NCBI RefSeq assembly: GCF_013167455.1
Contig: NZ_CP038330.1
Length of the DNA: 64,000 bases
Origin: Escherichia coli O157:H7
GTDB lineage: Bacteria; Pseudomonadota; Gammaproteobacteria; Enterobacterales; Enterobacteriaceae
Reading direction: 5' to 3' (one strand)
A model generated the notes under the pieces. It made no database searches and was not told the origin of the DNA. It was given only the letters and a program-made list of their open reading frames with translations. How positions within the stretch are numbered: position 1 is the stretch's first letter; the number at the start of each line of letters is the position of its first letter. Positions 3,529 to 64,000 of the stretch are shown piece by piece. Both the position numbers and the translations under genes were made by a program.

Positions 3529-4017
3529 ATGTTTGGAAAAATCATTTTAACTGCGATGCTCACAACCAGCTCTGCCACTGCCGAAGATGCCGGGAAGAAC
3601 ATCGCCTCAGGCTTGGCAACTGCATCTACCCGCCAAATAGGTCAGGCCATCATGCCAACTCTAGCTATCGGCTCGGCCATTGCAAAAAGCGCAGGAAAAG
3701 GCATGGTGTTAGGTTTCGCTGAGACATCTGCCAGCTATATTTCCCACGATGACCTGAGCGCCACTCGAAGCTATCAAAACCCTGAGGCTGTTGATATGGC
3801 AAAAGGCCTGGGGACCTTGAAAGACGTCCCTGATTTCCTCTACGTCATTACAGACGTAAATGCCAACATGGCTGACAAATGCAAGCGCGTCTGGGAGCCT
3901 CAATCACTGGCTTTAAGCCAATTGATTGTTGAGCTGGTGGCACTGCGTAAGACGAACAACAAAGGTAGCTACGAACAAGCGCTATCCCACCTCGATTGTT
4001 CAATATTCACAAACTAA
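3529..4017 (+). CDS. secreted hypothetical protein
   Basis: ATG at 3529 with GAGG upstream; N-terminal signal peptide MFGKIILTAMLTTSSATA; hairpin terminator follows. Confidence 0.55.
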   Translation: MFGKIILTAMLTTSSATAEDAGKNIASGLATASTRQIGQAIMPTLAIGSAIAKSAGKGMVLGFAETSASYISHDDLSATRSYQNPEAVDMAKGLGTLKDVPDFLYVITDVNANMADKCKRVWEPQSLALSQLIVELVALRKTNNKGSYEQALSHLDCSIFTN

Positions 4018-43723: not shown

Positions 43724-44734
43724 TTGCACGACACAAACAATGACAAGGAAGAGCTAGTTTCACATGCGAAAGTAAATGTTCCGGCAGAACAAAGCATTCG
43801 CGGTGAACTGTTGCCGTCATCGAGCTCGCTCCGGAACATCCAGGACAACCCCGCCGTCGCCTATCTGGTGAGCCTCGGGTCAAAGCGAAGCAGGCAGACC
43901 ATGAGCTCATTCCTCAACATTGTCGCCAAGATGATCGGGTTTCAGAACCTTCGTGACTGTGCATGGAGCTCAATGAGGCGGCACCACATATTGGCGGTGC
44001 TGGAAATGCTGGGGGATGCAGGGAAGGCTCCGGCAACGATCAACACCTACCTGTCAGCGCTCAAAGGGGTGGCTCTTGAAGCCTGGACGATGAAGCAAAT
44101 TGATACGGATAGCTTCCAGCACATTAAGCAAGTCCGTTCAGTACGTGGATCTCGACTTCCTAAAGGGCGGGCACTTGAACGCCATGAGATTCGCAGCCTC
44201 TTTTTCACATGTGAAAGTGATTCAAGCGCCAAAGGGCTTCGGGATGCGGCCATTCTCGGGGTGCTCCTCGGGTGTGGCTTGCGCCGCTCGGAAATCGTTG
44301 CGCTGGACATGGGAAGCATGATCTACAAGGACCGCGCTCTCAAGGTTCTTGGCAAGGGCAACAAAGAGAGAATGGCGTATGTGCCTGGTGGCGCATGGAA
44401 AAGACTGGATAAGTGGGTTGAAGAGGTTCGAGGAACGCATGAAGGGCCTTTATTCCCGAGGATCAGGCGGTTTGATGATGTGACTGGAGAGCGGATGTCG
44501 GATCAGGCCATCTACCACATCTTGGAGACCAGAAGAGTTGAAGCCGGTCTGGAGATGTTTGCGCCCCATGACCTGCGACGCACCTTTGCCTCCTCGATGC
44601 TGGATAACGGTGAGGATATTGTGACCGTGAAGGACGCAATGGGCCACTCAAGCATTGCAACTACCCAGAAATATGACAGACGCGGCGATGAGCGTTTGAA
44701 GAGAGCGAGCCAACGCCTCGATATAGCGGATTAA
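43724..44734 (+). CDS. int: tyrosine site-specific recombinase (phage-integrase family)
   Basis: TTG start with AGGAGG RBS; C-terminal catalytic region HDLRRTFASSML...GHSSIATTQKY; contains a copy of the palindrome TTTCACATGTGAAAG at 44203-44217. Confidence 0.8.
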   Translation: MHDTNNDKEELVSHAKVNVPAEQSIRGELLPSSSSLRNIQDNPAVAYLVSLGSKRSRQTMSSFLNIVAKMIGFQNLRDCAWSSMRRHHILAVLEMLGDAGKAPATINTYLSALKGVALEAWTMKQIDTDSFQHIKQVRSVRGSRLPKGRALERHEIRSLFFTCESDSSAKGLRDAAILGVLLGCGLRRSEIVALDMGSMIYKDRALKVLGKGNKERMAYVPGGAWKRLDKWVEEVRGTHEGPLFPRIRRFDDVTGERMSDQAIYHILETRRVEAGLEMFAPHDLRRTFASSMLDNGEDIVTVKDAMGHSSIATTQKYDRRGDERLKRASQRLDIAD

Positions 44735-44738
44735 CAGC

Positions 44739-45608
44739 ATGAATGATGAAGAACTCGAACTTGCCAGAGCCGAAGCCATGAAAGCCGATAGGTGCTTTTC
44801 AAAAGGACGGCTCAGGGACGAATTTAGGATGAAGCCTAAGCCAGGAGTAGAGCCAGTTTCGTTCTACAAAAACGGGTATGGTGGCCAATTTGGAGTGTAC
44901 CGGATAGCAGATTGCCAACCAATGCGGAGAAGGGGTTGTTCACCGGCATCACAAAAGCAAATAAGGGCGCAATCCATCCTTTCGGTCAAGGCAAGAATGC
45001 GTAGCAACCTGGCAAAGGCCTCTGTCATGGCACAAAGGTGGGTCGCTCTGGAACCTCTGGTTCTCGATACCGAGACGACCGGACTTGGTGAAAGAGACCA
45101 GGTGATCGAGCTGGCTGTTACTGACATCAGAGGCGCGGTTCTCCTCTGCACCAGATTACGGCCAACCGTGGAAATAGACCCTCAGGCAATGGGTGTTCAT
45201 GGCATCACCGAGACTGAGCTGTCGAATGAGCCTACGTGGACTCAAGTTGCGCCAGCTCTCGCCCGGCTTTTGTCGGGCCGTCATCTGGTGATATTTAACT
45301 CCAGTTTCGACAGTAGGATGTTGAGGCAAACAGCCAGTGCATTTGGAGACCAACTCTCTTGGTGGCAAGAGCAGAACTGTCTGTGCGCGATGAAGCTGGC
45401 GGCTGATGCCTTTGGCTCAACCAACCGGCACGGCACAATCTCACTTGCGGATGCCACCTGCGAGGCAGGTGTGAGCTGGAAAGGTCGAGCCCATTCAGCA
45501 GCGACCGACGCTATTGCCACCGCCGACTTGGTGACAGAGATAGCCAAAGTCCAACGTGACCTCGTGGTCCAGCTCCAGGAGCTTCAAAGCAAAGGTAATT
45601 TGGAATGA
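44739..45608 (+). CDS. DEDDh 3'-5' exonuclease (DnaQ-like) with N-terminal extension
   Basis: Exo I motif VLDTETTGL, HLVIFNSSFD, Exo III HSAATDAIATADL. Confidence 0.75.
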   Translation: MNDEELELARAEAMKADRCFSKGRLRDEFRMKPKPGVEPVSFYKNGYGGQFGVYRIADCQPMRRRGCSPASQKQIRAQSILSVKARMRSNLAKASVMAQRWVALEPLVLDTETTGLGERDQVIELAVTDIRGAVLLCTRLRPTVEIDPQAMGVHGITETELSNEPTWTQVAPALARLLSGRHLVIFNSSFDSRMLRQTASAFGDQLSWWQEQNCLCAMKLAADAFGSTNRHGTISLADATCEAGVSWKGRAHSAATDAIATADLVTEIAKVQRDLVVQLQELQSKGNLE

Positions 45609-46096: not shown

Positions 46097-46199
46097 TCGA
46101 GCAAATCTAGGCACTCTAAAAGTCGTCCTATAACCACAAAGTTAGACCATCATGCAAAGTGGGGTATAGAGGGTGCCAGCCCCACCCCAGCAGTCCCCC

Positions 46200-46292
46200 T
46201 CAGCCACATTTCTGGCTTGCCCCGCGCTTTTCTTCTTTCTCTCTTTTTCTCTCTTTTTCTCTCTCTTTCTCAATCTAATCTCACACACGAAG
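46200..46292. repeat. polypyrimidine CT-rich tract with TCTCTTTTTC repeats
   Basis: Strand-asymmetric low-complexity tract in an intergenic region. Confidence 0.5.
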
Positions 46293-46422
46293 GTCAAACA
46301 GGGCACCCGCCGACGCGAAGCGGAGGCGTATTCTTGCCCCTCCCCCTCGTTGCATGATGGTCTAAATCTGTCTACTATGTAACCAATGAACTGTTAGAAC
46401 AAACCCACACATAGGCGGCAGC

Positions 46423-47298
46423 ATGGCTAAAAACTTCATATCAGAACAATTCTCGGCCATGTGCCGCGACTTAACGAACCTGTCCTCTCTTATCAAACGA
46501 CTACCGCCACGGTACGCAAAAGTTGCGGCCATCCCTCCTACCGGAAAAGGAATGGAGAACGAGCCCGTCAACAAGATTGTCGTAACTGAACAAACTGGGC
46601 GCGAAGCTCTTGAGCTGGCAGCGCACAGCTACAGAGATCTTCACATCAACCCAGACTATTCGCAGAAGTCTGCCAGGCGCACCGTGGGGGTACTCTGGTT
46701 CTCCCCTTCCAGGATTGGTGTAGCTGACGAAATTGCGGCGACGGTTGAACGCATCAACGCGGCCAAAGCTGGTATCGAGGAGTTCATTATCTCGACGTAC
46801 CCCACCAGGCAAGAGAGGTTTGAAGCACTTCGAGCGGACTGCCCTGGTGTCATGACTCTCCACCTTTACAGACAAATTCGGTGCTATACCAATGGCGACA
46901 TCGACTCTATCCGCTTCACCTGGCAACGGAAGGACTCCTTGAAGAAGCCCGTAAAAGAGGAGCTTTTGCAACGCATCAGAGAGGAGCTGGAGCGATCTGG
47001 GCCAGACTATCAACTTCCCCTGGAGCAGCTTATCCAGAAGATCGCCAGCACCCCGGAGCCTTATCTCCGGGAGCGAAGGGAAGTAAAGGTTCAACCGGTG
47101 GCAAACGTCATGGCCGCAGGGGTACTCAAAACCGTTACCGCGCCAATGCCCCTGATCGTGCTCCAGGATAAGGATGTTCAGCTCAAATTGCTTCGTAACT
47201 TTGACGCCTCAGAACAACGCAAAACTCGATCTGATAAAGCGGCATCGGAAATCCTTGGCACCTTCGGTGGAGTCACTATCGAATCCTTCCCTGGATGA
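46423..47298 (+). CDS. hypothetical protein (291 aa)
   Basis: ORF with AGGCGG RBS; no motif recognised. Confidence 0.5.
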   Translation: MAKNFISEQFSAMCRDLTNLSSLIKRLPPRYAKVAAIPPTGKGMENEPVNKIVVTEQTGREALELAAHSYRDLHINPDYSQKSARRTVGVLWFSPSRIGVADEIAATVERINAAKAGIEEFIISTYPTRQERFEALRADCPGVMTLHLYRQIRCYTNGDIDSIRFTWQRKDSLKKPVKEELLQRIREELERSGPDYQLPLEQLIQKIASTPEPYLRERREVKVQPVANVMAAGVLKTVTAPMPLIVLQDKDVQLKLLRNFDASEQRKTRSDKAASEILGTFGGVTIESFPG

Positions 47299-60971: not shown

Positions 60972-61391
60972 TTACTTCTTCTGTGGGATACGGTAGCGCT
61001 CCAGCTCGACAGCTCCCAACCCCTTGAAAGCATCCGGGCGACGTCCTTGCCCACTCCACGAAACTCCGTCTTTTGAATATTTAGCATTATCAGGTTCTGA
61101 TCTGCTCGTGAACATTTCGTTGAGCAAGCCGATGTCCACACCGCAGGATTCCATGTCGCTCATTATTCGCTCAGCCTGAGCTCGCTTTTCTTTTTCTTCT
61201 TCTTCTCGCTTTTTGTACTCTTCCTCCAGTTCATTGAGAACGCCCTTCATTCTGTCAATGATCTCCCGAACTTCATCTAACGGGAGTCCTCGCAACAGGG
61301 TGCGAATGCGGCTTTTACGCTTTAACTCTGCGATTATTAACTCTCTACGTTCAGCCGCTGATAGCGTAGAGAACTCCTCGTGGTCTTTCAT
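60972..61391 (-). CDS. H-NS family nucleoid-associated protein
   Basis: 139 aa; N-terminal coiled coil, C-terminal DGVSWSGQGRRPDAF DNA-binding motif. Confidence 0.8.
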   Translation of the reverse strand: MKDHEEFSTLSAAERRELIIAELKRKSRIRTLLRGLPLDEVREIIDRMKGVLNELEEEYKKREEEEKEKRAQAERIMSDMESCGVDIGLLNEMFTSRSEPDNAKYSKDGVSWSGQGRRPDAFKGLGAVELERYRIPQKK

Positions 61392-63175: not shown

Positions 63176-63724
63176 GGTATTGAGGTGAGTCTACCAACAG
63201 AGCGATGGCTAGATCTGCTAGATCCGAAGCTCGAAGAAGAACGATCCGAGATAACAGAGGATCTGCTAGAGGCAGAGGGACGAGAGTTTGTTGCAGAGGT
63301 ACGGAGCAAACTGGATCACGCCTTAGCGGTTCTTGCTGTCGAGGCGCAGCAGGAAGCGGACATGTACTGGAACGCGCACAAATCAGCGCGTGAAGAAGCG
63401 TCAGAGGACGAACAAGGGCGTGTCGGTACACGGGTTCGCATTCTAGGCGTATCACTCGTTGCAGAGTGGTATCGCAACAGATTTGTCGAACAAGTTCCCG
63501 GACAAAAGAAAAGGGTTCTATCGACACATATCAAGAAGGGTCGCGGTCATGCCTACAGCATGTCGCACTTCAAGAAAGAGCCTGTCTGGGCACAAGAGTT
63601 GATCCAGCAAGTTGAAACCAGGTATGCCGTGTTAAGACAACGCGCCACTGCCTTAGCAAAAATTCGCCGGGCGCTAAACGAGTACGAGCGCCAGCTAAAC
63701 AAGACACATAGCGACGAGGTGTGA
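63158..63724 (+). CDS. hypothetical protein (start uncertain)
   Basis: 188-aa ORF whose 5' end overlaps the repeat region; acidic/coiled-coil-like. Confidence 0.4.
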   Translation: MDRNWEGIEVSLPTERWLDLLDPKLEEERSEITEDLLEAEGREFVAEVRSKLDHALAVLAVEAQQEADMYWNAHKSAREEASEDEQGRVGTRVRILGVSLVAEWYRNRFVEQVPGQKKRVLSTHIKKGRGHAYSMSHFKKEPVWAQELIQQVETRYAVLRQRATALAKIRRALNEYERQLNKTHSDEV

Positions 63725-63728
63725 CAAC

Positions 63729-64000
63729 ATGACAGCATCTGTAGCGGCCACTGAATTGGCGAAACTGGGGAAATGTGAAGCGATGATCAAGAAAGTCGCC
63801 AGCCATCCTCGCCCTGCCCTGTCAAAGCGCCCACAATCGCCACAGGGGACAGATAGCACCCTTCGGGGTGAGTTCGCTCATTTCCGATATGAAGCGGCAG
63901 CCCTGCGTTTTATGAGCGGCACTGCGGGGGCTAAGCGTCGCATCTACCAGCTAGTGTTTTCAGCGACGGTAGCAGCGGGAGCATTGACAATGCTGGCGGC
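63729..64000 (+). CDS. hypothetical protein, partial; continues beyond window end
   Basis: ATG at 63729 (MTASVAATELAKLGKCEAMIKK...), open to the window end. Confidence 0.35.
   Translation, partial: MTASVAATELAKLGKCEAMIKKVASHPRPALSKRPQSPQGTDSTLRGEFAHFRYEAAALRFMSGTAGAKRRIYQLVFSATVAAGALTMLA

Follow-up and report, generated by a model that had tools for sequence, protein, structure and literature searches.

Closely spaced, inverted pairs of polar replication terminators are known from plasmid R6K and from Bacillus subtilis, where IRI and IRII lie upstream of the autoregulated rtp gene. Both pairs form mini traps that are placed asymmetrically to the origin, and for neither pair are we aware of a report of a conserved homopurine/homopyrimidine element between the terminators. 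On the chromosome of Escherichia coli K-12, TerB (AATAAGTATGTTGTAACTAAAGT) is found on the sense strand of tus, 10 bp ahead of the start codon. Through this site, which is part of the tus promoter, the gene is autoregulated (PMC8707476). Plasmid-borne tus genes have been annotated and discussed as a likely source of the chromosomal gene (PMC6549158), and one was also annotated in the paper on pAQU1. In the searchable literature, to which subscription journals do not belong, no description was found of Ter sites of IncC plasmids, of their paired arrangement beside tus or of the tract enclosed by them.

Here we analyze a window of 64 kb of an IncC (IncA/C2) conjugative plasmid backbone. The original prediction for this stretch had pointed to a CT-only tract of ~90 bp with repeats in an intergenic region and had suggested that such a triplex-capable sequence might mark a site of recombination or replication pausing; it mentioned neither the 29-nt inverted repeat around the tract nor the Tus homologue encoded by the next gene downstream. 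Taking both into account, the tract very probably lies within a compact Tus-Ter fork trap, in which paired Ter sites stand beside the plasmid's own tus gene. While R6K uses the Tus protein of its host and the RTP protein of B. subtilis is unrelated to Tus, the IncC plasmid supplies its own Tus. By its protein family and the inferred arrangement of its sites the locus is a putative Tus-Ter fork trap, compact and self-encoded, with a conserved tract that has no described counterpart.

The IncC Locus and Its Tus Homologue

The 800 bp around the tract are 100% identical to hundreds of IncC plasmids, with 1027 matching records in PLSDB, and the hosts of identical IncC plasmids include Klebsiella, Salmonella, E. 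coli, Vibrio, Proteus and Shewanella. In enterobacteria and vibrios, IncC and IncA plasmids belong to the principal carriers of multidrug resistance. On the 5' side of the tract, a 178-aa ORF and genes for a tyrosine recombinase and an RNase T-type 3'-5' exonuclease are followed by a 163-aa ORF, all on the plus strand and corresponding to vcrx134-137 of pVCR94. On its 3' side lie, in this order, tus (vcrx138), a KfrA-like gene, a 92-aa ORF, a gene for a UvrD-like helicase and traF-H-G. The predicted location, intergenic and downstream of a recombinase-exonuclease cluster, is therefore correct. The features of the locus are as follows.

43724-44734, plus strand: tyrosine recombinase gene
44739-45608, plus strand: 3'-5' exonuclease gene
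46097-46422: intergenic region of 326 bp that holds the tract
46136-46164, minus strand: left arm of the inverted repeat, putative Ter site (Ter-L), with the core TAGACCATCATGCA at 46143-46156 in the orientation of E. coli TerB on the minus strand
46159-46185, plus strand: hairpin-capable sequence GTGGGG...CCCCAC, directly inside Ter-L
46165-46226, plus strand: C-rich, G-poor segment (27 C and 14 G) between Ter-L and the tract
46227-46271, plus strand: uninterrupted C/T run of 45 nt, the minus strand being all purine
46240-46259, plus strand: two exact tandem copies of TCTCTTTTTC, the variable-number unit
46266-46282, plus strand: near-invariant block TTTCTCAATCTAATCTC at the 3' end of the tract
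46308-46328, plus strand: GC-rich hairpin block CGCCGACGCGAAGCGGAGGCG, which includes GCGAAGC
46343-46371, plus strand: right arm of the inverted repeat, putative Ter site (Ter-R), with the core TGCATGATGGTCTA at 46351-46364 in a TerB-like orientation relative to tus
46350-46378, plus strand: putative tus promoter TTGCAT-17 nt-TACTAT, read by eye, with the -35 element inside Ter-R
46423-47298, plus strand: tus homologue of 291 aa (vcrx138 of pVCR94)

The product of vcrx138 matches the Pfam family Ter (PF05472) with an E value of 2.9e-46 and the E. coli Tus structures PDB 1ECR and 2I06 with an E value of 2.4e-21, at ~30% identity to E. coli Tus. It retains the equivalents of I79, F140 and G149 of the E. 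coli protein. An Arg replaces His144, and there is a gap at Arg198; these two differences count against a trap. In E. coli Tus, these five residues belong to the cytosine-6 pocket.

In RNA-seq data of pVCR94, the operon call is split between vcrx137 and vcrx138, and vcrx138 forms a transcription unit of its own. A terminator scan found no intrinsic terminator between these two co-directional units.

The position of the locus relative to the origin follows from pVCR94deltaX, in which repA occupies coordinates 817-1917 and at least 11 iterons are found at 2039-2798, downstream of repA. The window ends at pVCR94 coordinate 816, and repA and the iteron origin start immediately past it; the closing segment of the window (63185-64000), with mobI and a small ORF, equals pVCR94deltaX coordinates 1-816. 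We assume that oriT lies just upstream of mobI, as reported for this plasmid family, which would place it at ~63 kb in the window. The repA iterons are thus ~19 kb to the right of the proposed trap and, measured the other way, at a distance of at least 100 kb. GC skew does not change clearly across the locus, which counts against a terminus, but is uninformative in a mosaic window.

Paired Ter-like Sites around the Tract

The two arms of the 29-nt inverted repeat are 86% complementary, lie 178 nt apart and enclose the tract. Their core motif occurs at two places in the 64 kb, compared with 0.17 expected by chance, and otherwise only as one weak match. This third Ter-like match (GTCAGGCCATCATGCCA at 3641-3657) has 3 mismatches and may be due to chance. 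Ter sites of the host type were not found in the window (no matches to GNRNGTTGTAAYKA), and the likeness of the IncC cores to the E. coli consensus is modest. Nonetheless, the IncC core GCATGATGGTCTAA has GYATGWTG in common with TerB, including the G equivalent to G(6). We read the inverted 14-mers as candidate Ter sites of a fork trap of ~200 bp, to which the Tus homologue would bind.

The non-permissive faces of Ter-L (rightward) and Ter-R (leftward) would both point inward to the tract. This orientation is inferred because outward faces would leave the spacer unreplicable, and it agrees with the homology to TerB. The locus resembles E. coli tus-TerB in its Tus-family protein, in a Ter-like site that lies upstream on the tus sense strand and over putative promoter elements, in the shared GYATGWTG and in the opposed orientation of the sites; the non-permissive faces of the IncC pair would point inward. 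Unlike the E. coli trap, which extends over hundreds of kilobases, it is ~200 bp wide and comprises only two sites, both of which lie beside tus. It further differs in the Ter sequence (GCATGATGGTCTAA in IncC as compared with GTATGTTGTAACTA in E. coli) and in the conserved spacer tract, which is without a chromosomal counterpart.

The putative tus promoter scores 7 of 12 against the consensus and was not called by the promoter scan, which returned nothing above the tool thresholds at this locus. Equivalent hexamers with the same spacing are present in the IncA, Vibrio and Moritella loci, and the distance from the tract end to the putative -35 is 79 bp. Tus probably autoregulates its expression via Ter-R, which overlaps this promoter, as is the case at TerB. 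Two other promoters were considered and discarded. A left promoter after Ter-L would depend on a -10-like element (TATAGA/TATAAA) that is short of its final T and not found in several lineages. A promoter activated by AcaCD would need a binding site, and none is present at the locus, Table S3 of the AcaCD study containing no peak between vcrx137 and vcrx138 (PMC4207636).

Composition of the Pyrimidine Tract

The interval 46200-46292 (93 bp), for which a CT-only sequence had been predicted, is 78% pyrimidine and contains 12 A and 8 G. The tract itself is real, although at half the proposed length, since the pure run amounts to 45 nt. Among the purine and pyrimidine runs of the 64 kb it ranks first, ahead of one of 26 nt. 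In 200 first-order Markov simulations, the longest run had a mean of 17 nt and a maximum of 34 nt, and we therefore consider the tract to be beyond chance. A minus-strand ORF (60972-61391) contains the third-longest purine or pyrimidine run of the window, a 23-nt pyrimidine run at 61185-61207 that probably encodes a Glu/Lys-rich stretch.

The repeats that had been noted in the tract are confirmed by the exact tandem copies of TCTCTTTTTC, and Tandem Repeats Finder reports a 10-bp unit in 4.0 degenerate copies with 93% matches. The tract also has the highest signal of helically (10-bp) phased T-tracts in the window. Its mirror symmetry amounts to 64% identity overall, with arms of 16-18 nt that contain no more than 2 mismatches. 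As a pure homopurine/homopyrimidine run with partial mirror symmetry the tract qualifies as an H-DNA motif, and it could form a triplex. Folded as single-stranded DNA, the purine strand is unpaired and no more stable than shuffled sequences (z -1.07). A G-quadruplex on this strand was rejected, as the four-run motif occurs in only 4 of 17 lineages.

The tract resembles known H-DNA mirror repeats, such as (GA)27 in SV40, (GAA)n and the PKD1 tract, in its purity, its partial mirror symmetry and its presumed stall-prone orientation (PMC11667243). Those fork-stalling sequences are accidental or pathological and usually longer, whereas the IncC tract is short (33-55 nt) and conserved, would stand next to a barrier that is programmed, and has a sequence-specific block at its end.

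Tract Alleles among IncC Plasmids

Among ~970 IncC plasmids with identical flanks, three main tract alleles are found that differ by 10-bp units.

35 nt: one copy of TCTCTTTTTC, ~277 records, including pVCR94deltaX (read in L003)
45 nt: two copies of TCTCTTTTTC, ~544 records, including this window
55 nt: three copies of TCTCTTTTTC, ~115 records (read in L002)

The one-, two- and three-copy alleles are the product of ordinary slippage of the 10-bp unit. The prediction would have been given up had the tract been absent or, without consequence, highly variable in close relatives; it is present in essentially all IncC plasmids and in distant relatives, and varies by whole 10-bp units. A coding tract was dismissed, since ORFs cross it on both strands and every one of them is frameshifted by the 10-bp alleles. 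A phase-variable contingency locus was also considered in view of the variable copy number and rejected, as the tract is intergenic and lies 79 bp upstream of the putative -35. The 10-bp copy-number variation can serve as a marker for plasmid typing.

Copy-number differences between otherwise identical IncC backbones, together with a 5' part of the tract that drifts between lineages, are what one would expect of a neutral, slippage-prone spacer of low complexity between selected Ter sites, perhaps made or kept by repeated fork stalling. We regard such a spacer as quite improbable, however, because the purity of the tract and its 3' block persist in lineages with 47-62% Tus identity, in which the surrounding spacer is unalignable, and because an analogous tract is found in an unrelated Ter pair on pPrY2001 (see below).

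Conservation in Other Lineages

Seventeen non-redundant lineages were collected by Tus protein searches in plasmids, a genome scan and a pattern scan of metagenomes. The metagenome loci were picked with TCTAATCTC; the lineages L010, L029 and L059 were found without this pattern, yet carry the TTTCTCAATCTAATCTC block. Tus identity to the IncC protein ranges from 47 to 94% across the 17 lineages, all of which show the same order of elements: Ter-L, a C-rich and G-poor stretch, a CT tract ending in TTTCTCAATCTAATCTC, a variable stretch, Ter-R and tus. The orientation of the spacer is also identical in all of them. The 14-nt Ter core is invariant, and in the 17-lineage alignment the only other near-invariant sequence is the 3' part of the tract with its terminal block, the remaining spacer being saturated with change. 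Between Ter-L and the tract there are 56-77 nt, and between the tract and Ter-R 71-152 nt. The tract itself is 19-55 nt long, with A interruptions in the L010 and L011 lineages. In the L010 (Pseudoalteromonas-type) family, a position flanking the core is changed on both arms (T>C and A>G), and this paired change fits one protein reading both sites.

The hairpin inside Ter-L folds in most lineages with differing stems (GAGTGGG/CCCACTC, GTGTGGGG/CCCCACAC, TTAAGGGTTT/AAACCCTTAA and GGCCAG/CTGGCC), with a mean z of -2.0 over the 17 lineages. On the other side of the tract, GCGAAGC forms part of the block GCCGnAGCGAAGCGnAGGC, which is found again in the L138, L059/L148 and L141 lineages; L059/L148 and L141 are distant ones.

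The near-invariance of TTTCTCAATCTAATCTC and the preceding ~20 nt, which are conserved like the Ter cores in an otherwise saturated spacer, could also reflect a cis site that acts through its sequence or architecture. It might be bound by a protein of the plasmid or the host, such as a Tus accessory factor or the nearby UvrD-like helicase, or it might be statically bent and in this way arrange the two Tus-Ter complexes or the tus promoter. The top phased T-tract score, indels of whole 10-bp helical turns and the linkage of a UvrD-like gene to tus would all suit such a site, which we nevertheless consider unlikely. The 10-bp steps are a trivial consequence of the 10-bp repeat unit, the spacing between tract and tus promoter ranges from 71 to 152 nt, and pPrY2001 is without the block. 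Furthermore, no candidate protein or motif emerged, the IHF, Fis and DnaA consensus sequences and the oriC 13-mer being misfits by eye.

It had further been proposed to test the tract as a recombination site of the adjacent recombinase. In IncC plasmids it does lie ~1.5 kb downstream of the tyrosine recombinase gene (vcrx135). However, the module of tract and repeats travels with tus and not with the recombinase, which in other lineages is kilobases from the module or not in the upstream flank examined (2-3 kb in L139 and L142; ~0.6 kb, annotated as hypothetical, in L010 and L011). In addition, the constant orientation of the spacer and repeat arms that are 178 bp apart, instead of surrounding a crossover region of 6-8 bp, argue against a recombination site, and we regard this function as extremely improbable. 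What holds of the proposed replication or recombination mark is thus a triplex-capable sequence between Ter-like sites beside tus, while its tie to the recombinase is not supported.

An exact scan for TGCATGATGGTCTA in 100,044 species genomes returned mostly single matches that are due to chance or lie in coding sequence. Inverted pairs at a distance of ~180-200 bp were found in a Marinobacterium genome and in a marine metagenome-assembled genome. Two Moritella species have three matches each on separate contigs, compared with ~0.04 expected per genome. In both Moritella genomes, one of the 14-mers lies at promoter distance upstream of a tus homologue (45% identity), and the others adjoin housekeeping genes such as radA and fliG. 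We read these matches as a probable chromosomal Tus-Ter system with the same site as IncC. A single Ter site, the one proximal to tus, is present at the tus loci of E. coli, Moritella and a Xenorhabdus plasmid, and these loci lack a tract. Neither Ter-like 14-mers nor a tract are present at the tus gene of pECTOK-001_1 (L012), which is 46% identical to that of IncC; the 520 bp upstream of this gene contain an array of approximately six repeated units, in which CCCC-loop-GGGG is followed by a TTAACGG-like sequence.

An Independent Arrangement in pPrY2001 and pJPM24

The Tus proteins of pPrY2001 and pJPM24 share 32% identity with the IncC protein; relatives of the pPrY2001 protein were all either at least 95% or less than 60% identical to it. 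Beside tus, pPrY2001 (L155 3317-3496), like pJPM24, carries a perfect 19-nt inverted repeat (AAATATGCCAACATACAAA / TTTGTATGTTGGCATATTT) that holds the E. coli Ter core GTATGTTG. A 42-nt run inside this repeat is purine on the sense strand of tus, which is also that of the rep operon, and the TTTCTCAATCTAATCTC block is missing. Fourteen 22-nt iterons (L155 1148-1989) are located upstream of rep, and rep and the iterons lie 1.3-2.3 kb upstream of the tract.

Compared with IncC, the polarity of the pPrY2001 tract is flipped relative to tus and local transcription and is the same relative to the nearest origin. Since the iterons are on the opposite side in pPrY2001, the purine strand would be the lagging-strand template of the origin-proximal fork in both plasmids. 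This comparison of polarity comprises two independent arrangements, as all other lineages share the synteny of IncC. A plasmid of Pseudoalteromonas was considered as a third arrangement and turned out to be syntenic with IncC. In pAQU1, repA is CDS 001 and tus is CDS 191, and we take this plasmid to be IncC-syntenic as well.

Transcription and RNA as Alternative Explanations

The base composition of the spacer offers another explanation. The 120 nt at 46180-46299 contain 48 C and 11 G and are the strongest plus-strand C>G window in the 64 kb, and the left spacer has more C than G in all 17 lineages. The locus could accordingly be a Rho-loading (rut) insulator: a CU-repeat RNA of ~120 nt, transcribed by read-through from vcrx134-137 across Ter-L, would release RNA polymerase before it reaches the Tus-bound Ter-R and the tus promoter. 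Like rut sites, the sequence is C-rich, G-poor, unstructured and YC-rich over ~120 nt, which is beyond the 70-80 nt of such RNA generally called for, and it is placed between co-directional units; no conserved RNA secondary structure covers the tract. The lack of an intrinsic terminator together with the RNA-seq split between vcrx137 and vcrx138 would suit an insulator, as does the C>G bias, which runs ~60 nt past the tract and fits Rho loading better than it fits a fork brake. In pPrY2001 and pJPM24, however, the tract is purine-rich on the strand of the rep operon and tus, and a divergent upstream gene in L010 and L011 leaves no obvious read-through to be stopped. Moreover, Rho loading would need neither the purine-free purity of the tract nor the invariant 17-mer nor a place between paired Ter sites, in all of which the tract is unlike rut sites. 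We therefore judge an insulator of this kind to be doubtful.

The tract might also act at the RNA level, as a leader or small RNA whose CU-rich sequence base-pairs with ribosome-binding regions rich in purines. The best same-strand duplex partner within 4.5 kb downstream, in both IncC and IncA, is a 26-nt purine run at 48471-48496, where the KfrA-like gene meets the 92-aa ORF; it lies at the 3' end of the former and covers the ribosome-binding site of the latter, which starts at 48500. Against this, there is neither a credible promoter nor a conserved structure, the polarity is flipped in pPrY2001, the duplex target is inconsistent in other lineages, and pairing of this kind is to be expected between any two runs of CU and GA. 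An RNA function is hence very unlikely. Related searches ended in the same way: matches to Rfam families were at chance level only (E > 2), RNAalifold yielded only long-range pairing of the repeats, which the Ter sites explain, with the tract left unpaired, and the top matches among RNA-RNA targets of the CU tract were generic purine-rich coding runs that were inconsistent across lineages.

Proposed Role in Replication Termination

The compact Tus-Ter trap is most likely the place where IncC plasmids finish copying their DNA. With the origin ~19 kb to the right, the leftward fork would enter through Ter-R, which should be permissive from that side, traverse the ~180-bp spacer, of which the tract is the conserved core, and lock at Ter-L. 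The remaining 100 kb or more would be replicated by the other fork, until it meets the one parked at Ter-L. A terminus of this kind would be similar to the asymmetric one of R6K and to the inverted pair of B. subtilis.

We tentatively favor a role of the tract itself as a polar brake of homopurine/homopyrimidine DNA that acts on the fork before it reaches the Tus-Ter lock, a function that we hold possible without giving it even chances. As a rule, stalling at H-motifs is most pronounced where the purine strand serves as lagging-strand template (PMC11667243), and the purine strand of the tract would be the lagging-strand template of the very fork that is to be arrested. A transient purine-motif triplex could slow this fork in the tract, which would thus serve as a speed bump or holding element ~70 bp before the lock at Ter-L and either raise the efficiency of arrest or stabilise the parked fork. 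A brake is favored by the occurrence of the tract only together with paired Ter sites, by a polarity that follows the origin, by the mirror arms, the phased T-tracts and the unpaired purine strand, and by a distance to Ter-L that ranges less widely than that to Ter-R. On the other hand, the argument from polarity covers only two independent arrangements, with 19-55 nt the tract is shorter than most fork-stalling H-motifs and has A interruptions in two lineages, and an action based on composition would leave the near-invariant TTTCTCAATCTAATCTC block unexplained.

A more far-reaching proposal, which we put forward as speculative and rather less than probable, is that the triplex-prone tract was selected as an orientation-specific brake that works together with the Tus-Ter lock. 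It would then be the first natural case of non-B DNA with a constructive part in programmed termination, and the compact trap would be the ancestral plasmid form that was later domesticated by chromosomes. The locus would provide a concrete example for the domestication of chromosomal tus from plasmids (PMC6549158). It also gives candidate Ter sequences for the plasmid Tus family and a defined terminus of 230 bp, and it offers a natural system for the question, prompted by studies of barrier efficiency and replisome speed, of whether a triplex-prone tract aids a protein barrier in stopping a replisome.

Finally, the gene for the UvrD-like helicase (48766-50298 in the window; 1912-2655 in L010) keeps its linkage to tus and directly adjoins it in the Pseudoalteromonas plasmid. 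E. coli UvrD is reported to help strip Tus from Ter, and the UvrD-like gene and tus could form a functional pair.
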